Notes under the pieces: generated by a model
The model's input: only the letters and a program-made list of their open reading frames with translations
Database searches by the model: none
What the model was told of the DNA's origin: nothing
Shown: one piece after another, positions 20,631 to 29,413 of the stretch
How the letters are laid out: each line of letters begins with the position of its first letter
Numbering within the stretch: position 1 is the stretch's first letter
Assembly: GCA_048882485.1 (NCBI GenBank)
Contig: JBHLRP010000010.1
Span: 8,431-72,430 of the forward strand
Length of the DNA: 64,000 bases
Reading direction: 5' to 3'
Source: Candidatus Thorarchaeota archaeon
Lineage (GTDB): Archaea > Asgardarchaeota > Thorarchaeia > Thorarchaeales > Thorarchaeaceae
Made by a program: the position numbers and the translations under genes

Positions 20631-22457
20631 TCAGGAAATGTACGGGTCTTCGTCTATGTCGAACCCAACGAATCCCATCTCCTCTAGAATGTCCTCCATG
20701 CTTTCAGCTCCGGTCATCCACCTGACCTGCCACTTCCCATCTTTGCTAAGGATGATCTCAACATCAGGAAGGTCTCCAAGTAGATTGTGGTTCATCTCAA
20801 TCACATCTTGATATGCGCCTGTGAGTGCGATAGCGAAGTATGAGCCTGGTATGTTCTCGATTGACCCAACAGGAATTCCCTCTCCCATCTGACCTATTGG
20901 CATGGTCACAGGGCGGTAGTCCCGAGTGAACCAAATTTCTCCAGTGCCTTTTCGATGAAACTGAGAAATCTCACCATCCGAATCACAAGTTAAGTCACAA
21001 AGCCGCACAGTTGTTTCGGGGTGAAGATGAAGATCACGAATTGGTACAATCGGGAAGTGCTGTTTCACCAGGACGTAATCGCAGGCGCTGTTGAACACAC
21101 TGAAGTTTCCTATCACAATGTGGTCTGGATGCCACAGGCTCTCACTCAGTGCGTCAGACCTCAAGCTCGTTGCTCCTAGTCTTGCGATTCTTCTGCGAAT
21201 CTCAGCTCTCACCTGACCGATCAGTGCCTCTCTCTCCTTCAGTGCAACCAGGGAGTCCGCTAGGGTGCTCTTACCAATCTGAAAGGTGTTCCAGACTTCA
21301 GCAAGCTCGCTGATAGAAGCAGCATCTGCTATCTCTTTCAGCACTGCCTTGTATTGACTCATGCTGCTCTTGCCAATGTCCTCAAGGCTTGGGAATACAG
21401 ACCTTACCTCCAAGGCTTTGATTAGCACCACTGATCCGAGGGCTGTTAGTCCTCGGCCAGATTCAACCAATATGTTTGGAGCTAATCCCTCCGGCCATTT
21501 GATTAGCTCATTCTGGATGCCTCTAACTATCGATTCAGCGTATTGCTCCATCAAGTTTGGTGCGTACGTACTAGTATAGTCAATGGGGAGTCCACCACCA
21601 AAGTCAATCAGGTTGAGATTTGCGAGGCCATTTTGCCGCAACTCCAGAAATGTCCTCGTCATAAACTCTGCAAATCCTACGAAATCCTCAATCGCTGTGA
21701 TTTGAGAACCAACATGTCCCAGAATAGTGGAGACAGAGTCCTCGAATCCTTTTGCCTTCAGCAGGCCTACCACATCGAACAGGTCATGTATACTCAAGCC
21801 AAACTTGGAATCGCGTCCTGCAGAGTGTGACCAATGGCCCCTGGCCGTTATATACGGTTTTATTCTCAGAACCATGTTGACTTTCCCAGGACGGAATCTA
21901 TTTACAATGAGCCGGGCTTCGTGAAGTGACTCAATTGATACCGCAATGTTGTAGCCCTCCTCAATGCAATCCTGAATTGTGTTGAGATATTCAGGATCTT
22001 TAGCACCATTGCAGATTATGAGTCGATGCTTCTCCTTCTCTACCACGGATTTGATGAGGAACAGCTCTGCCTTCGTACCTGCCTCAAGGCCGTAAACAGG
22101 ATTGGTATGTAGGACTTGAACTACATAGTCACGTCGCTGATTCACCTTCACTGGATATACAGCACTAAATTCACCTTTGTAATCCATAGCTTTGATTACT
22201 TTGTAAAACGTGGCAACTAGCTTCCTGACCTGGTACGAGATGAGCTGGGGGATTCGCAGGGTAAAGGAAGATGTATAGCCTGTTCGAGTTCCATTTGCAG
22301 CTTCAATTCGCTTCACAATCTCACGGATTGAGATTGTCCTGCCATCAAGTTTGATGACCAAATCACCTTGCTCATTGATGTCCAGGAAATGAAGATCGTT
22401 GCTACTGAGTCCATAGATTAACCTCGACTTCTCTATCGACCAATCGTCTAAGGTCAG
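20631..22457 (-). CDS. speA: PLP-dependent biosynthetic arginine decarboxylase (SpeA-type); probable CUG start at 22457
   Basis: VYPVKVNQ, GLEAGTKAE, CNGAKD, SKFGL, HVGSQI, DFGGGL, ESGR, LTCDSDG, GAYQD; frame stays open upstream of the track start and encodes WSIEKSRLIYG...FLDINEQGDL. Confidence 0.85.
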   Translation of the reverse strand: MTLDDWSIEKSRLIYGLSSNDLHFLDINEQGDLVIKLDGRTISIREIVKRIEAANGTRTGYTSSFTLRIPQLISYQVRKLVATFYKVIKAMDYKGEFSAVYPVKVNQRRDYVVQVLHTNPVYGLEAGTKAELFLIKSVVEKEKHRLIICNGAKDPEYLNTIQDCIEEGYNIAVSIESLHEARLIVNRFRPGKVNMVLRIKPYITARGHWSHSAGRDSKFGLSIHDLFDVVGLLKAKGFEDSVSTILGHVGSQITAIEDFVGFAEFMTRTFLELRQNGLANLNLIDFGGGLPIDYTSTYAPNLMEQYAESIVRGIQNELIKWPEGLAPNILVESGRGLTALGSVVLIKALEVRSVFPSLEDIGKSSMSQYKAVLKEIADAASISELAEVWNTFQIGKSTLADSLVALKEREALIGQVRAEIRRRIARLGATSLRSDALSESLWHPDHIVIGNFSVFNSACDYVLVKQHFPIVPIRDLHLHPETTVRLCDLTCDSDGEISQFHRKGTGEIWFTRDYRPVTMPIGQMGEGIPVGSIENIPGSYFAIALTGAYQDVIEMNHNLLGDLPDVEIILSKDGKWQVRWMTGAESMEDILEEMGFVGFDIDEDPYIS

Positions 22458-22475
22458 ACTTCACACCTCATATAG

Positions 22476-23924
22476 CTACTGTGACTCATCATCCTTAATT
22501 GAATCCAGCATTCCCTGGAATGCTCGTGCTAGCTCTCCTATTTCGTCATCCTTTGAAGTATATGTCGTGTCCACTTGCAGGTCAAGGGTATCGAGCGGTT
22601 CTTGTTTTATCATAGCTGCGACATTCTTTGTTGCGAGGTCCATCATGTATTGCAGAGGTCCCGTGATTTGGTTTGATATCACAACAGCAACAGCTGCGGC
22701 TATCATGATTCCTGCTACTGTTATCGCTAGGATGAATAATGTTGCTTGAGTGTTTGCAGCCTCGATACGTGCCTCTAATTCAGGAATTGCACTCAATACT
22801 TCATCAACCGGTACGACTATGACGCAAATCCAATTTGCCTTGCCAACTGGAGTGTAAACTAGGATGAAGTCTTCACCATCACGAGTGTATCTTAGGAATC
22901 CGGTTGCGCCTGAACGTATCTGGTCCACATCTTGGGATGATAATGCTGGACTTCCATCAGTATTACGTTCAACGAATGTAAGCGCAGGCAATCCTGTTTC
23001 GTATGCTTCGTCTGGAACCTCTGGGTGTGCAACTACCAGTCCAAGACTGCTCTCTACAAGAGCGGCATAACCTGATGTTAGAACAGTAACATCAAGAACT
23101 TCCTGATTGATGTCTGCAATTGTAATGTCTCCAGCAACAATTCCAATGAGGGTGCCATTCTCGAAGTAAATCGCCCGACCAATGGTCACAAGGAGAACTC
23201 CTTCAAGCGGGTCGAAATATGGTTCTACAAAGACCATATCACCATCACCGTCCTCAACCTCTGTGTAGAAGAAATCTGTCGTTGGATACCATGGATCAAT
23301 TAGTCGATTCTCGATGGGCAGCAAGCTTCCTGGATAGTTGATGAACATGTTAGTATCTTTGAAAACAACGTATAGCCACCTGAAGTCAAGCTGTTCATGG
23401 ACTGATTGAAACATTTGGTCGATGTTTGAAATCCTTGCGAGCCTCTCATCCTCATACAGTTGATAATCAGCAACTGTTGAAGGCGGGACGTACCAGCTGC
23501 TAAATGTCCATGACACATTAAGTTCATAGTTGGGATCATAGGCTGTATCAGCTGGATACTCTCCTGGAGATCCATATTCGAAATAGTAGTCGTAGTAAGT
23601 TCTTCGAGGTATGTACGTTGATTCATCACTCAGAAGCCCCTCTGCTTCCTCAGCTAGTGCTGCAATCATAGACTCAGCATTCGTTAGTTTCTGATTGATC
23701 ACCAGTGCTGTCTTCTCACCGGTAAGATCCATGTTGGTCTGAATCTGTGATTCGAGAGCATTTGTACTCTCTGTAGTGGTGAAGTCTCCAATCAAATTCA
23801 CAAAGAAATATGAGATTCCTCCAGTGACTCCTAGAGAAATGATCGAAATTGTGACGAAGGTCAGTATGACATTCCTGCGGAAACTACCTTTCTTCTTGGT
23901 CCTTGCCATCTTTGACAACATCAT
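22476..23924 (-). CDS. Membrane dCache + HAMP sensor with no cytoplasmic output domain
   Basis: TM, Cache (EPYFDP, GIVAGDITI, GYAALV...AHP), TM, HAMP (DDEIGELARAFQGM), then stop. Confidence 0.8.
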   Translation of the reverse strand: MMLSKMARTKKKGSFRRNVILTFVTISIISLGVTGGISYFFVNLIGDFTTTESTNALESQIQTNMDLTGEKTALVINQKLTNAESMIAALAEEAEGLLSDESTYIPRRTYYDYYFEYGSPGEYPADTAYDPNYELNVSWTFSSWYVPPSTVADYQLYEDERLARISNIDQMFQSVHEQLDFRWLYVVFKDTNMFINYPGSLLPIENRLIDPWYPTTDFFYTEVEDGDGDMVFVEPYFDPLEGVLLVTIGRAIYFENGTLIGIVAGDITIADINQEVLDVTVLTSGYAALVESSLGLVVAHPEVPDEAYETGLPALTFVERNTDGSPALSSQDVDQIRSGATGFLRYTRDGEDFILVYTPVGKANWICVIVVPVDEVLSAIPELEARIEAANTQATLFILAITVAGIMIAAAVAVVISNQITGPLQYMMDLATKNVAAMIKQEPLDTLDLQVDTTYTSKDDEIGELARAFQGMLDSIKDDESQ

Positions 23925-23931
23925 ACACCTC

Positions 23932-26781
23932 CTAGAAATCTACTGTACTTCCTCCTACTTCCAGTTGAGCCATCATCACTCCAACCTCCTGGAACGCTTT
24001 CTCAATGTCACTTCTCACATCTATGCTGTCAAGGACTGAGAGATATTGTCCCTGAGGGATGTGGTCACACACTGAATCAAGTAATTCTTCAAAGGTCATT
24101 CTCCGCCCTGTAATCGGGGATCTCACCTTGGCTTCAATTGGTGCTTTCAGCTCATCACCTACACCGATTATAATTAGGTTGACATCGAGATGATTATCCC
24201 TGATGAATCCTTCAATGGTCAGATGTCTCTTTCTCCGATGTCTATCTTCCTCAGTGAAGATCCCTTCCAACGCATCAAGCGAGTACATCTCAGAGCTATT
24301 GTCTTGGCCATCGGTCAAGGCGATTACCCATCTGTGCTCGCTTGACTCGATTCTATCAAGCTCCTCCAGAGCCCTACCTAGAGCATCGTAGAATGCTGTC
24401 GCATAATTGGGATGCCTGAGAGAGTCTAGGGCACGAATGATGGGGCTGTCTCTCGGACGCTTGTATTCTCCCTTCCTAGTTAGCGGGAGAATCTCTCGAA
24501 ATGATGAGTTGAACACTATAATGCTCACTTCATCTTGTGGATTGACTTGACTCTCTACAATCTCCTTGGCACCTTGAACTGCTGCTCTAATCCTGTTCTG
24601 AGCCTGCATGCTACCTGAGTAGTCGATAACGAGAATCACACTCTTCTTGAACATGATTGAACGTTTCAATCTCTCAGCTTTGCGTCTGATCTCGTGACTC
24701 GGCTTATCTCGCTGATCCAAGACATCAGCTAGATTCTGCATGGCATAGACGACTAACCAGAACTCCTCAGTTATTTCTCCCAGACGAATTGCATCATTGT
24801 ATTCATCTTCAGCCTTCTTCAGTTTCCCTTGAACTTGGAATAGCTCGCCCATGTGATAGTGAATGTATGCCATGCTTCTTTCATAGCCTTCAGCAGCAGC
24901 TGTCTTAAGCGCCTCTTCAAATTTTGAAAGAGCTTGGCTGTATCTGCCTTCCCTTACCAAGACAAGTCCCTGTGCATCGAAGCGCTTGGCAAGGCCTCTC
25001 TGGTTGCCTAGAGTAAGGTCAATCGCTACAGCATCCTCTAGCAGCTCCATTGCCTTTTTGGGATTGTTCTTGTCCATCTCTACAAGAGCCATGTTGTGAT
25101 ATACTGAAGCGACTCTGACCAAGGCATCAGTTTCTTCTGCGCCCTCTTGCCGGGCTCTTTCAAGGAGCATCTTTGCTAGTGCCAATGCTTGTTCATAGTA
25201 ATCCATTGCGTTACCTGTATCTCCACGCTGACGAAACACATTTCCAATGTTCAGATACATTGTTTGCTCGCCAATCTCAATATTGAGGCTGCGACTAATT
25301 TCGAGCAAATTCTGATAGTTCGCCAGGGCTCTGTTCAGGTCACCCCGAATGAAGGCTTGATTTCCGAATCTGATTGCTTCCTGGAAGTTCAGCAGTGCGT
25401 CAACGGTAGTACCAACCTCTTCATACATTGCTCCTGCAGTTGAAACACCGCGAGTAAAGTCCTGGCCTGCCATCTTCGTCACTAGACGTGTCATCTCCTT
25501 TATGGGCTCCACTACAGCGTTTCCTCTCCTGTAAGAAATGAAAGCAACCCCTACAGCCACGCCAGCCAGCATTGCGCCTAGGATTATGGTAAGCAAGAAG
25601 GTCTGGCCAAGGACGAGATTCAGAATATTCGTAGCAGGTCCTATCACTTCTGCTGAGGGGACAACGATGGCAAGCACAAAGCCTGTCACATTGACCTTCG
25701 AGTAGGTGATATACCATTCCTCACCTCGTTTCTGGAATGTATCATGTCCACTGTCTTCAGATAGAATTGTAGGCAGAAGCGATGTGAATTCTGCAATCTC
25801 TGTCGAGCTAGCTCCAGAGAACTCAGCTTCATTTAGGGTCTGCCCTTCAGCAACCAGGTCCGGATGTGCTATGAGTCCTCCATCTGATTCCAAAAGATAG
25901 GCATAGCCGCTCTCTAAGACTTCTATGCCAAGCACATTCGCCATGATGGTGTCAAGGGTCACGTCAGCCGATACGACCCCGATTAGCGTTCCATTGTCAA
26001 AGTGTATGGGGCGTCCCATTGAAATGACTAGACCAGTGGAGGGGTCTCCATAGGGACTTGTAAACGCGATGCTGTCATCTAGTACGGCAGCTGCATTGAG
26101 GTACCACTCTTCTATAGTTGGATCATAATCCAGACCCGGACCGTACCAGTCCTCGAAGTAGAAGAGATTGTCGTAGGGATAGTTCCTGAAAAGGCGTGTA
26201 TCGCTAACGTCCGGAGAGAAGCCCATGTATAGCCATATATAATCCTCACTGGCCTGATGCAGCGAGCGATAGACATTGTCCATGTTGCTAGAAATCTCTA
26301 TGAGACTTCGAGTGGTAGGACTCCAGTCCCAAGGATCATTTGGAGTTTGGTAATCATCAGTTGGCATGTACCAGCAGCTGACATCGAAAGAAATGTCATT
26401 CGAATCATACGCTTCGTCGTATGTGGCCGGATTTCTCCCGGGTATATCCCTTCCACTGTTATACCATTCCAAGGATGGATCCCAGAAGTACGAGTATTGG
26501 GGTGTCGCATTGATTCTCTCATTGAATAAGTCCTCAGCATACTTCTCCATCATGTAGACGCCATCGAAGTATTGCTGCATTCTTTCCGAAATGAAGGACG
26601 CAGTGTCCTCTGAAATCCTCAGAAGATTGGCAAGTTCCTCAGTCCTAAGTGCTTCTGCGGCATCAGCAGCATTTTCATTCGATGTTGTGAAAACACTGTT
26701 TGCTGAGAGTGCCGCTATAATCAGAATTGGCACCAGTGACACGACTACAAAGGTCACCACTATTCGTTTGCTGATATCCAT
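23932..26781 (-). CDS. Membrane dCache-HAMP-TPR-vWA signalling protein
   Basis: Cache (EWY, SPYGDP, GVVSADV, GYAYLL..GGLIAHP), HAMP, about 6 TPRs, vWA with intact MIDAS (DYSGS...T...LTDG). Confidence 0.8.
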   Translation of the reverse strand: MDISKRIVVTFVVVSLVPILIIAALSANSVFTTSNENAADAAEALRTEELANLLRISEDTASFISERMQQYFDGVYMMEKYAEDLFNERINATPQYSYFWDPSLEWYNSGRDIPGRNPATYDEAYDSNDISFDVSCWYMPTDDYQTPNDPWDWSPTTRSLIEISSNMDNVYRSLHQASEDYIWLYMGFSPDVSDTRLFRNYPYDNLFYFEDWYGPGLDYDPTIEEWYLNAAAVLDDSIAFTSPYGDPSTGLVISMGRPIHFDNGTLIGVVSADVTLDTIMANVLGIEVLESGYAYLLESDGGLIAHPDLVAEGQTLNEAEFSGASSTEIAEFTSLLPTILSEDSGHDTFQKRGEEWYITYSKVNVTGFVLAIVVPSAEVIGPATNILNLVLGQTFLLTIILGAMLAGVAVGVAFISYRRGNAVVEPIKEMTRLVTKMAGQDFTRGVSTAGAMYEEVGTTVDALLNFQEAIRFGNQAFIRGDLNRALANYQNLLEISRSLNIEIGEQTMYLNIGNVFRQRGDTGNAMDYYEQALALAKMLLERARQEGAEETDALVRVASVYHNMALVEMDKNNPKKAMELLEDAVAIDLTLGNQRGLAKRFDAQGLVLVREGRYSQALSKFEEALKTAAAEGYERSMAYIHYHMGELFQVQGKLKKAEDEYNDAIRLGEITEEFWLVVYAMQNLADVLDQRDKPSHEIRRKAERLKRSIMFKKSVILVIDYSGSMQAQNRIRAAVQGAKEIVESQVNPQDEVSIIVFNSSFREILPLTRKGEYKRPRDSPIIRALDSLRHPNYATAFYDALGRALEELDRIESSEHRWVIALTDGQDNSSEMYSLDALEGIFTEEDRHRRKRHLTIEGFIRDNHLDVNLIIIGVGDELKAPIEAKVRSPITGRRMTFEELLDSVCDHIPQGQYLSVLDSIDVRSDIEKAFQEVGVMMAQLEVGGSTVDF

Positions 26782-26827
26782 TGCACTGCCTCCTCTCGTT
26801 TGTAGTGATTTGATTCCATTTTCTGGT

Positions 26828-28297
26828 TTACGCCTCTAATTCTTTTTGTAGTATGTTCAAGAATTTCCTAATACTCTGCTCCTTGGCTAGAACGAATGCA
26901 TTACCTTCTATGGTGCCTTCAATCAATCCCTCTCCAAGGAGTATAATCAGTGTTCTTCGAAGAATATTTTGGGGCACTCCAGTTTCCTTTTCCACATCTG
27001 CAATATCGAAGCGCTCATTCTTGTCAAGAAGGTCCTTTGTCATTCTGACCGCAGCTTGAGCCTGAGCGCTTGAAGGCTTGAGTGGCGTTCTAGGTTGCTT
27101 TTCCATCGTTCGTACAAAAACATCTTTGTTGAAATGTCCATCAAGTATCCCTTTCTCAATCATCGTCTGAATGCTTCTTCTCAAGTTATACGCAGCTGGT
27201 CTAGGGAGAGTCTTTCTGAGAATCCTATCCAACTCCTTCAGCTGAATTCTGCTGTGTTTTGATGTGATTGATTCAATGCTATCCTGCATATACTCCTCAA
27301 TCATGTACTCATCTAGAAGCTCAAGCTTAGCTCCGCATGATGAACATTCATGGGCCTCCGGGGATGTGGGTGCTCCACAATTGCCACACTTGATCGCACG
27401 ACGATATAATGTCATCTTCGTTGATCCTATCTCTTGAAGAGTCGCTTTCTCTGACTTCTTCACTTTGACAGTGTCTTGGGCCTCCCAGAAGAGGAGCTTC
27501 CTGTCACGCGTACTTACGACCAAATATGCGACATCAGAAACATCATCAGGTATTCCCGTAGCCAAAGCCTTAGGCGGAGCTGGAAGCATTAATGATGTAA
27601 CCGTATTCCCCTCAATGTCCCAGATCTGCAACTGAGGCGAATGGTCTCCTGTGACAAACAGTTTCCTCTTTCCGAAAGTCAGTACCCCAAATACCGTGAT
27701 TACATTGCCAAGGTCTAGTCGCTTCAGTTCGTAACCAGCTGCAGATAGAATCAACACAGTGCCTTTCCGCTGTGCAATGACTACTTCGAGCTCTGAATCG
27801 TTCGTTATATCTTCCAGCCAGACATCGGATATTGCCTGGTCAACGGTACGACTGAATAGGGCAGTCTGTTCATGGTTCCACAGAATGACTCTCTTATTCT
27901 GTAGGGCTGCGACAACTTCCGCGGCATCATCGCCGTCAACATCTCGTGCATCACATGCAATGACCGTACTTTCAAGGTCGTTTTTCCATAGTACTCTGCC
28001 TTTTTGATTCACAACTAGGAGTCTTTTACCGGCTCCCCCAATAAGAGCATCTTCTCCGCTGCTTTCAACATCTCCTACTGCTATGCATCGAACTTTGCTG
28101 CTGTAACCCCTCGATGACTTTTGAGATCCCACAGTGTCAAAAATCCGTAGCCTTTCTCCATAATCGAGTGAGAAGACCTGCGCCCTCGCGTCCCTCTGCT
28201 GCCTCACGTAGAGACTGTAAACATTGGCGGGAAGAGAAACAACTGAAGTTTCCTGGAATCGCACAGTCCAACAAGCACCTTGTGGAGTTCTGCTCAT
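26828..28297 (-). CDS. Beta-propeller (FG-GAP-like) + Zn ribbon + tandem winged-helix (PCI-like) protein
   Basis: DVDGDDAAEVV and DITNDSELEVV; CGNCGAP...CSSCG; IEKGILDGHF and GEGLIEGTIEG. Confidence 0.6.
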   Translation of the reverse strand: MSRTPQGACWTVRFQETSVVSLPANVYSLYVRQQRDARAQVFSLDYGERLRIFDTVGSQKSSRGYSSKVRCIAVGDVESSGEDALIGGAGKRLLVVNQKGRVLWKNDLESTVIACDARDVDGDDAAEVVAALQNKRVILWNHEQTALFSRTVDQAISDVWLEDITNDSELEVVIAQRKGTVLILSAAGYELKRLDLGNVITVFGVLTFGKRKLFVTGDHSPQLQIWDIEGNTVTSLMLPAPPKALATGIPDDVSDVAYLVVSTRDRKLLFWEAQDTVKVKKSEKATLQEIGSTKMTLYRRAIKCGNCGAPTSPEAHECSSCGAKLELLDEYMIEEYMQDSIESITSKHSRIQLKELDRILRKTLPRPAAYNLRRSIQTMIEKGILDGHFNKDVFVRTMEKQPRTPLKPSSAQAQAAVRMTKDLLDKNERFDIADVEKETGVPQNILRRTLIILLGEGLIEGTIEGNAFVLAKEQSIRKFLNILQKELEA

Positions 28298-28333: not shown

Positions 28334-29413
28334 ATGAGTCCTTCCATTCCCAAATGTGATGTAGGGTTCCTATGGAGTCCAGAACTCGAAACCTTTGACT
28401 TTGGCTCAAAACACCCCATTCGTGTTGGCCGTTTTCAAATGGTCAGGGATTTCCTTCAGGAAACTCGATTCCTTGAACATCCCAGAGTGAGGATAATTAG
28501 ACCGAAGCCTTTGGCAAGGACGCTTCTAAGTCGAATCCACTCTCAGGAGTATTTGGAAAAGGTCAGAAAGATATCAGAAACTGGAAAAGGTGAGATTGAC
28601 ATCGACACTCCGGGGTTTAAGGGAATATACAATAATGCCAGGATTACGAGCGGTGCAACTGTGACTGGAGTTGAGGCTATCCATTCGAAGAAGGTTTGTC
28701 ACACCTATTCTCCAACGGGAGGATTTCATCATGCTCGCTACGAAACTGGTGGCGGATTTTGCATATTCAATGATGTTGCAGCCTCCGTGTATCGTCTTAA
28801 AGACCTGGGATATGAACGCATTCTGATAGCAGACTTCGATGTTCACCACGGAAATGGAACTCAAGCTTATTTCTATGATGATCCTGGAGTCATGCAGATT
28901 TCGTTCCATGAAGATCCTGAGTGGATGTATCCACATGATGGTTTCATCAAGGATATAGGAGAAGGAGAGGGCATTGGCTATAATATCAACATGCATTTTC
29001 CTATGGACTCAGGAGATGAGGTATATCGATATGCGTTCGATATGATTGTACCACCTCTCTTCAAGTTCTACAAACCTGATTTCATTCTCTTCCTTCCTGG
29101 ATTTGATGCACATTATGATGATCCCATGACTCATTTGAATCTGACAATGAACACAATTCGCTATGTAACGGAAGAAATCCACGCTGCCGCCCACAGATGG
29201 GCTGGCGGCCGTCTAGGTGTCATATCAGGTGGTGGGTACAATCGTGAAGTCTTTCGATATGGAGCAGGAGTAGTGATGTCTGTCCTTACCGGAGCTGTCT
29301 TTAATCCTCCCACACAAACGCCACCCTTTGAGGATGACGATGAAATCTGGGCAGTAGTCAAAGAAAACACTCAGAAGGTTCAGGATTTGGTCTTCTCAGC
29401 ACTCGGAATATGA
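28334..29413 (+). CDS. Histone deacetylase / AcuC family Zn-dependent deacetylase
   Basis: GGFHHA, GGFCIFND, DFDVHHGNG, GFDAHYDDP, GGGY. Confidence 0.9.
   Translation: MSPSIPKCDVGFLWSPELETFDFGSKHPIRVGRFQMVRDFLQETRFLEHPRVRIIRPKPLARTLLSRIHSQEYLEKVRKISETGKGEIDIDTPGFKGIYNNARITSGATVTGVEAIHSKKVCHTYSPTGGFHHARYETGGGFCIFNDVAASVYRLKDLGYERILIADFDVHHGNGTQAYFYDDPGVMQISFHEDPEWMYPHDGFIKDIGEGEGIGYNINMHFPMDSGDEVYRYAFDMIVPPLFKFYKPDFILFLPGFDAHYDDPMTHLNLTMNTIRYVTEEIHAAAHRWAGGRLGVISGGGYNREVFRYGAGVVMSVLTGAVFNPPTQTPPFEDDDEIWAVVKENTQKVQDLVFSALGI

Follow-up and report, generated by a model that had tools for sequence, protein, structure and literature searches.

Here we describe a gene cluster from a Candidatus Thorarchaeota archaeon that, on balance, we lean towards reading as an operon of four genes centred on a transmembrane receptor that is specific to Asgard archaea and has no enzymatic output, and that would couple outside amines to the synthesis of agmatine and polyamines. 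The cluster lies in a 64,000-nucleotide stretch of contig JBHLRP010000010.1 (GenBank assembly GCA_048882485.1), which we refer to as the window and whose first letter is position 1 of the coordinates below. It encodes a soluble propeller protein, a long and a short receptor that are related in sequence, and an arginine decarboxylase of the SpeA type. In the usual description of transmembrane sensing in prokaryotes, the output is an enzyme or a DNA-binding domain. The receptor described here is deeply conserved in Asgard archaea, has docking domains as its only output and exists as a fixed pair of paralogues.

Gene layout and receptor domains

The unit and its parts are as follows.

26828..28297, minus strand: gene 1, soluble propeller, Zn-ribbon and predicted tandem winged-helix protein, 489 amino acids (aa) (AlphaFold models)
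26782..26827, minus strand: spacer between genes 1 and 2, 46 nt, with GAGGAGG 8 nt 5′ of the ATG
23932..26781, minus strand: gene 2, long receptor, 949 aa, consisting of a first transmembrane segment (TM1), dCache_1, a second transmembrane segment (TM2), HAMP, TPR and VWA (Pfam, hydropathy, alignment)
25612..26691, minus strand: dCache_1 of the long receptor, extracellular, residues about 31-390 (PDB alignments to Mlp24, Mlp37 and PctA)
25366..25524, minus strand: HAMP of the long receptor, residues about 420-472, unbroken into the first TPR helix (P426, E455, R471 and N474 invariant)
24667..25365, minus strand: TPR array of the long receptor, cytoplasmic, residues about 473-705 (Pfam TPR families)
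23935..24648, minus strand: VWA of the long receptor with its metal ion-dependent adhesion site (MIDAS; D720, S722, S724, T795, D824) and a conserved acidic-aromatic C-terminal tail, cytoplasmic
22476..23924, minus strand: gene 3, short receptor, 482 aa, consisting of TM1, dCache_1, TM2, HAMP and a short acidic tail (Pfam, alignment)
20631..22457, minus strand: gene 4, SpeA-like arginine decarboxylase dependent on pyridoxal phosphate (PLP), 608 aa, CTG start at 22457

An earlier reading of the window, made from the sequence only, had noticed three tightly packed co-oriented genes with gaps of 46 and 7 nt, and the coordinates of the three minus-strand open reading frames (28297..26828, 26781..23932 and 23924..22476) agree. 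Shine-Dalgarno-like motifs precede gene 2 (GAGGAGG) and gene 3 (GGAGGTG). The sequence-only reading ended the unit at the short receptor and so missed its fourth gene, speA, which runs from 22457 to 20631 on the same strand and begins 18 nt past the short-receptor stop, giving a unit with spacers of 46, 7 and 18 nt.

Both receptors belong to the dCache_1 family (PF02743), scoring 64.8 bits (long) and 61.1 bits (short) against a Pfam gathering cut-off of 45 bits, and are 30% identical to each other over residues 5-438 (E 1e-37). Each has two strong hydrophobic segments, which flank dCache only, placing the sensors outside the cell and HAMP, TPR and VWA in the cytoplasm; the propeller protein and SpeA have no such segments. 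The HAMP match of the short receptor, at 23.1 bits, is slightly below the 25-bit cut-off of PF00672, which its orthologues clear (27.8, 27.6 and 29.9 bits). HAMP of the long receptor draws no Pfam call here, and two orthologues, L021 and P0125, score 37.6 and 39.7 bits for it; the proline of AS1 (P426) and the glutamate before AS2 (E455) are invariant among long-receptor orthologues. Beyond HAMP, the long receptor matches TPR_12 (68 bits), with further hits to TPR_2, TPR_1 and TPR_MalT, and then VWA_2 (46.4 bits). The five residues of its DxSxS...T...D metal site are invariant in 11 diverse orthologues, as are R471 and N474 at the HAMP-to-TPR junction, and these orthologues include a form that lacks dCache. 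In alignments, a conserved acidic-aromatic tail closes the long receptor and an acidic tail the short receptor; speculatively, either tail could serve as a ligand of MIDAS or TPR.

In Pfam scans with hits considered at E up to 0.1, the three proteins contain no kinase, methyl-accepting chemotaxis protein (MCP) or cyclase domain, and neither HisKA/HATPase_c nor GGDEF/EAL gives a hit. NCBIfam kinase matches span just the TM-HAMP or TPR portions. CheW and MCPsignal have zero matches in the genome, which is 90.5% complete; with no MCP domain in the proteins either, the label 'McpC' carried by one orthologue is wrong. The domain assignments of the sequence-only reading therefore stand: of two paralogous dCache receptors, neither of which has a kinase, MCP or cyclase domain, one stops right after HAMP and the other leads to TPRs and to a VWA domain whose MIDAS is intact.

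The receptor pair across genomes

The long receptor with the short receptor directly downstream is found in 72 of the 87 species genomes of the class. The HAMP-TPR-VWA half has relatives in 116 of 400 Asgard genomes, spread over nine families, and the long-then-short adjacency is present in at least nine Asgard families. Loci were surveyed by script, giving 97 loci, about a dozen of which repeat places already in the set. Wherever the contig continues, the long gene is followed on its own strand by the short gene at all surveyed loci except that of one genome, G059, and the two genes are separated by 7 nt or overlap, with a Shine-Dalgarno motif. In G059, a single-contig genome, the long receptor has an internal TAA, and about 180 kb separate it from the short receptor and speA, which are on the opposite strand (L008 and L046; G059:C1 at about 196.7-199.6 kb and 380-383 kb). 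Either this copy is decaying and rearranged, or the genome is misassembled here.

When 13 sensor halves of each type are placed in a maximum-likelihood tree, long and short separate with 100/99 support, and the long and short subtrees have nearly identical branching orders. The supported split and the mirrored subtrees point to one old duplication followed by co-divergence. Two doubts attached to the sequence-only reading, that the genes might not occur together in other genomes and that the short receptor might be a lineage-specific truncation, are thereby answered in its favour: the order of the pair held across the survey, and the short receptor is an ancient paralogue.

The two partners have also changed together. 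In family f22 both are without dCache, a 574-aa TM-HAMP-TPR-VWA protein being followed by a 154-aa TM-HAMP protein. As separate observations, the minimal form of f22 (L022 5747-9945, G286) includes a 616-aa propeller protein ending in a Zn ribbon, and in family f14 (Hermod-type; L023 293-2290, L028 9110-10858) the short receptor is fused after HAMP to a Zn ribbon and HEAT repeats, with no propeller gene seen near the f14 loci.

A heteromer is favoured by the apparent translational coupling of the genes, by the loss of dCache from both partners at once and by a pocket residue, discussed below, that changes in parallel in both. We infer that the long and short chains form a heterodimer and that the TPR-VWA arm signals by recruitment. 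The HAMP receptors characterised so far are, to our knowledge, homodimers, and this lends some weight to another arrangement, in which each receptor forms its own homodimer and the short one, having no output, tunes the long one as a sink for the ligand or as a competitor. We think this quite unlikely. Genes that are strictly adjacent and tightly spaced in at least nine families are what one expects of obligate partners, a decoy would be more easily lost, and the mirrored trees, the joint loss of dCache and the parallel pocket changes all argue for a mixed receptor. The initial observation was correct but incomplete, and its idea of a heterodimer that signals by recruitment appears well motivated by the comparative data.

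The pair seems to be largely confined to Asgard archaea. A single conserved VWA motif, scanned over 185,579 prokaryotic species genomes, found 93 relatives, those without the exact motif being missed, and 80 of these were kept as loci. Their titles name Asgard lineages or unclassified archaeal metagenome-assembled genomes (MAGs), with the exception of one MAG labelled Bathyarchaeia. With the cytoplasmic half as query, a word-based search brought up only generically named proteins of the Thorarchaeota type. The Bathyarchaeia-labelled locus (L097, DATKZI010000011.1) carries long receptor, short receptor and speA and resembles the Heimdall-type form of family f13; its contig may be mis-binned or transferred.

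Three contigs binned as giant viruses (L119, L120 and L121; IMG/VR GVMAG) encode a dCache-TPR-VWA protein beside a dCache partner of about 500 aa. These contigs are AT-rich (GC about 30%), the long protein has both its MIDAS and a pocket motif of the YRWYYD type intact, and about 26 further metagenomic relatives have the same form. One of the three contigs, of 116 kb, also has a photolyase gene. A broader proposal, which we advance only tentatively and consider doubtful as a whole, is that the pair forms a class of transmembrane signalling of its own, an obligate heteromeric Cache-HAMP receptor working solely by MIDAS/TPR capture or release of cytoplasmic proteins, which would have been ancestral in much of Asgard, would be shared with giant viruses or their eukaryotic hosts, and would be a candidate forerunner of the scaffold-based receptor logic of eukaryotes.

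The ligand pocket and a probable link to agmatine synthesis

Alignment to PDB structures places E224 of the long receptor at the Arg position of the R-x-W-Y motif in Mlp24, Mlp37 and PctA (R126 of PctA). In amino-acid sensors this Arg contacts the carboxylate of the ligand, and W128, Y129, Y144 and D173 are common to the amino-acid and amine classes of dCache_1; the amine sensors (dCache_1AM) arose from amino-acid sensors (dCache_1AA) by loss of the Arg, keeping the shared aromatics and the Asp (PMC10589655). Set against the dCache_1AA motif, which in PctA numbering is Y121, R126, W128, Y129, Y144 and D173, the long receptor has Y219, E224, W226, Y227, Y244 and D273 and the short receptor W212, D217, F219, Y220, Y236 and D266, so that neither carries the dCache_1AA motif. 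At the positions common to both classes the aromatics and the Asp are present, and the Arg is absent; the full dCache_1AM motif has in addition an upstream insertion with an R-D pair. In the PDB, the short receptor matches 3LI8 and 3LIB best.

Among speA-linked loci, Arg at the R126 position is missing from all 55 long and all 56 short receptors. The long receptors have instead E (45), Q (7), Y (2) or S (1), and the short receptors D or E (53) or Q (3). Both partners of the Lokiarchaeum and Promethearchaeum loci, from families without a SpeA-like gene, carry the full YRWYYD. The residue replaced is the one that contacts the carboxylate, the group that arginine decarboxylase removes from arginine, and for this reason we read the Thor-type pair as a putative amine sensor, the ligand of whose pockets would be a decarboxylated amine, for example agmatine, putrescine or another polyamine. 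The Loki-type pair, on the same type of comparison, would be amino-acid sensors.

The ligand could conceivably be something other than an amine, with the same pair and the same recruitment output, speA then being a target of regulation, or a client that docks on the TPR-VWA arm, and not the source of the signal molecule. The Q, S or Y that some speA-linked long receptors have at the key position would suit this, and dCache_1 domains bind numerous classes of ligand (PMC10589655). We nevertheless judge it unlikely: five of the six positions of the amino-acid motif are kept and just the carboxylate-binding Arg is replaced, in both partners, and Arg returns only in lineages without speA.

The identification of gene 4 rests on a full-length match to NCBIfam PRK05354 (E 3e-100; 336.5 bits against an equivalog cut-off of 369) and on PDB SpeA structures (3nzp, E 1e-57). 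Its motifs PVK, HxGSQ, GGG, EsGR and CDSxD are, we assume, the PLP lysine and fold-III signatures. It is the sole Orn_Arg_deC_N match in the genome, and pyruvoyl arginine decarboxylase has no match there. Archaea need agmatine for the modification of tRNA-Ile and for polyamine synthesis.

The start of speA was reassigned. The program that lists open reading frames begins it at a TTG 114 nt past the short receptor, although the 32 codons upstream are conserved as protein. Five positions before a conserved Trp stands a start codon that is GTG in distant Thorarchaeia and CTG in this clade (five genomes), and GAGGTG lies 5 nt upstream of the CTG (window 22455-22457, minus strand). The conserved upstream codons, the GTG at the homologous codon of relatives and the GAGGTG together indicate that speA starts at CTG 22457. 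A GTG-TGA upstream of speA was considered as a read-through start and rejected, since this GTG sits inside the Shine-Dalgarno GAGGTG. Gene callers limited to ATG, GTG and TTG starts would clip the 32 conserved codons. Two other speA-related observations concern relatives: the SpeA-like gene of Hodarchaeum mangrovi (G143:C139:9290-11095) has one in-frame TGA in the match, which could reflect a sequencing error, a pseudogene or recoding, and the f13 loci (L026 12493-13875, L027 12635-14074) have, after speA, a second fold-III PLP decarboxylase of 460-479 aa, shorter than SpeA and similar to LysA and ornithine decarboxylase.

Across the surveyed loci only the propeller gene and speA recur beside the pair. 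speA follows the pair downstream in Thorarchaeia, f10 and f13, and in f8 and f11 the two are divergent; outside Thorarchaeia it adjoins the pair in 15 of the 16 cases with both genes on one contig. No SpeA-like gene was found in the genomes of f21 (0 of 14), f22 (0 of 135) or f23 (0 of 4). The propeller gene lies 1-3 kb from the pair in five families and in three arrangements, namely upstream in Thorarchaeia, downstream in f21 (Lokiarchaeum ossiferum), f22, f23 (Sigynarchaeum) and some Promethearchaeum, and convergent in f11 (Hodarchaeum and other Heimdall-type genomes). Non-Thorarchaeial propeller hits of about 350-630 aa (f11, f21, f22, f23) are 1-3 kb from a HAMP-TPR-VWA hit wherever the genome has one, and weaker matches in other families are to unrelated or giant repeat proteins. 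In one Thorarchaeial genome, G076, the three signalling genes are gone and a 44-codon remnant of the propeller gene stands between a histone deacetylase (HDAC)-like gene and speA. The position of this remnant (L029 6328-6459; G076:C7:15328-15459) points to a clean deletion of the trio.

The HDAC-like, methylase, M24 peptidase and PP-loop genes near the unit are likewise syntenic within Thorarchaeia, as would be expected if the gene order were simply an inherited neighbourhood, with the propeller protein and SpeA acting independently of the receptors. This explanation seems to us very improbable. Those other neighbours are syntenic only within that family, for which reason they were not counted, whereas the propeller gene and speA are kept beside the pair elsewhere in rearranged orders and orientations; the joint loss of the trio in G076 also argues for a shared function.

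One of these neighbours adjoins the unit itself. The HDAC-family gene at window 28334-29413 (plus strand; Hist_deacetyl E 5e-76) and the propeller gene are divergent, their starts lying just 36 nt apart, an arrangement found in 44 Thorarchaeial loci and absent from the most divergent Thorarchaeial genera and from other families. Its product could be a putative acetylpolyamine deacetylase. As a polyamine deacetylase partner it was not counted, being kept beside the unit only in part of Thorarchaeia and among unrelated neighbours.

Propeller protein, proposed mechanism and known systems

By Pfam, gene 1 gives weak propeller matches and a Zn ribbon. Its AlphaFold model, built on a 28-sequence alignment, has a pLDDT of 83.4 (88.5 for the C-terminal half alone) and shows 24 strands in six four-strand blades over residues 12-275, followed by a helix, a ribbon with four cysteines (C304, C307, C318 and C321) and two winged helices. 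The tandem winged helix is established at the level of a confident model. The GTG at 28264 (V12) aligns with the start of most homologues and may be the true start of gene 1; residues 1-9 have a pLDDT below 50. Fold searches of the propeller with Foldseek and VIA retrieve NHL, WD40 and BBS propellers alike (Z about 23) and nothing specific, and an integrin-like FG-GAP reading was rejected (FG-GAP_3 E 0.032; six blades in the model). The winged helices resemble those of UFL1/DDRGK1, ESCRT-II, Stn1, cullin and PCI proteins and of bacterial repressors, all with low scores (at best a Foldseek E of 9e-4 with a TM-score of 0.25, and a VIA Z of 7.5 or less), and the region has no significant match in Pfam, by PDB sequence or by fold.

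The sequence-only reading had called this protein propeller/PCI-like and likened the system to proteasome-lid complexes. The propeller and winged helices are borne out; 'PCI-like' is not specifically supported, as the model has no helical-repeat part and PCI winged helices (Z about 6) score no higher than many others. The lid analogy is one of domain types only. The full-length family of gene 1 is restricted to Thorarchaeia; across families just the propeller part is common and the C-terminal parts diverge. Elsewhere in the same genome (G000:C18:16909-17307) an open frame of about 2,260 aa shares the blade repeats of gene 1 (E 1e-4); it occurs in most Thorarchaeia, with E down to 1e-10 in relatives.

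The functional reading with the most support, as judged from comparison of the sequences, is that the locus encodes an amine sensor of two chains, free of enzyme domains and tied to the making of agmatine. An outside amine would bind the mixed long:short dCache pair, and the signal would run through a mixed HAMP bundle, altering the grip that the TPR-VWA arm has, by way of its MIDAS, on the cytoplasmic partners which it would hold or let go. The propeller protein would be the main partner of this arm in Thorarchaeia, and through its winged helices it may influence the transcription of the operon, with the result that agmatine synthesis would track the outside amine supply.

Several observations weigh against this scheme. 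Families f8, f10 and f13 have the pair and speA with no detectable propeller gene, and f21-f23 have the propeller without speA, so neither gene is obligatory for the pair. Neighbourhood synteny is generally high in Thorarchaeia, and adjacency within that group alone therefore carries little weight. The C-terminal part of the propeller protein varies between families, which makes a role as a transcription factor not general, and neither by sequence nor by fold do the winged helices match a DNA-binding family significantly. The non-acidic residues (Q, S or Y) in the pocket of some speA-linked long receptors also count here, and the correlation between pocket and speA comes from few independent evolutionary events.

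If the scheme is true, a recruitment-type pathway would be added to those of the closest archaeal relatives of eukaryotes, the control of these cells' only detected source of agmatine would be explained, and the pocket would be a clean case from nature of a receptor re-tuned to a new ligand by reversing one charge. Tests are feasible, since the cultivated Lokiarchaeum ossiferum carries the module.

Literature searches for the receptor architecture found no paper describing the system, in agreement with the earlier statement that no described system has this form. Among the systems nearest to it are the dCache_1AA receptors (PctA/PctB/PctC, Mlp24 and Mlp37), which share the sensor fold and the TM-dCache-TM-HAMP layout (PDB E about 1e-12). 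Of their six motif residues, five are retained here, and the Lokiarchaeum orthologues retain the full set. The Thorarchaeial receptors differ in having Glu or Asp in place of Arg, TPR-VWA or no output domain in place of MCP, and two paralogous chains. The dCache_1AM receptors (PctD, PacA, McpX and the M. mazei kinase sensor 3LIB) share the loss of Arg with retention of the aromatics and Asp (PMC10589655), but the known members feed kinases, MCPs, cyclases or phosphatases, unlike the receptors here.

In animals, alpha2delta and CACHD1 also combine dCache_1 with a MIDAS-bearing VWA domain. CACHD1 matches the dCache of the long receptor (E 9e-12), and the short partner of Lokiarchaeum passes Pfam VWA_N, a part of the Cache region of alpha2delta. 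In alpha2delta, however, both domains are extracellular and VWA is inserted in Cache, whereas here VWA is cytoplasmic and follows TM2, HAMP and TPR.

Membrane-anchored VWA and TPR proteins are also known from BatA/BatB, which work with MoxR, and there are weak matches to BatC (NCBIfam) and BatB (PDB). VWA proteins are often paired with MoxR, and the genome has a clear MoxR-type AAA_3 gene (208.7 bits) on another contig and a few weaker AAA_3 matches. The VWA domain might on these grounds be the substrate adaptor of a MoxR-type AAA+ chaperone, in the manner of Bat/MoxR, the unit then remodelling or inserting a protein such as SpeA instead of passing on a signal. We give this little credence: no MoxR or DUF58 is present among the annotated genes of the loci examined, including the present one, Bat proteins have neither sensor nor HAMP, and HAMP with a conserved ligand pocket points to signalling. 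For the proposed amine receptor the nearest parallel in working is Mlc, a transcription factor sequestered at the membrane by PtsG. That system shares no homology with the receptor pair; the likeness is one of operation only, in that a non-enzymatic membrane protein would hold or release a soluble regulator.

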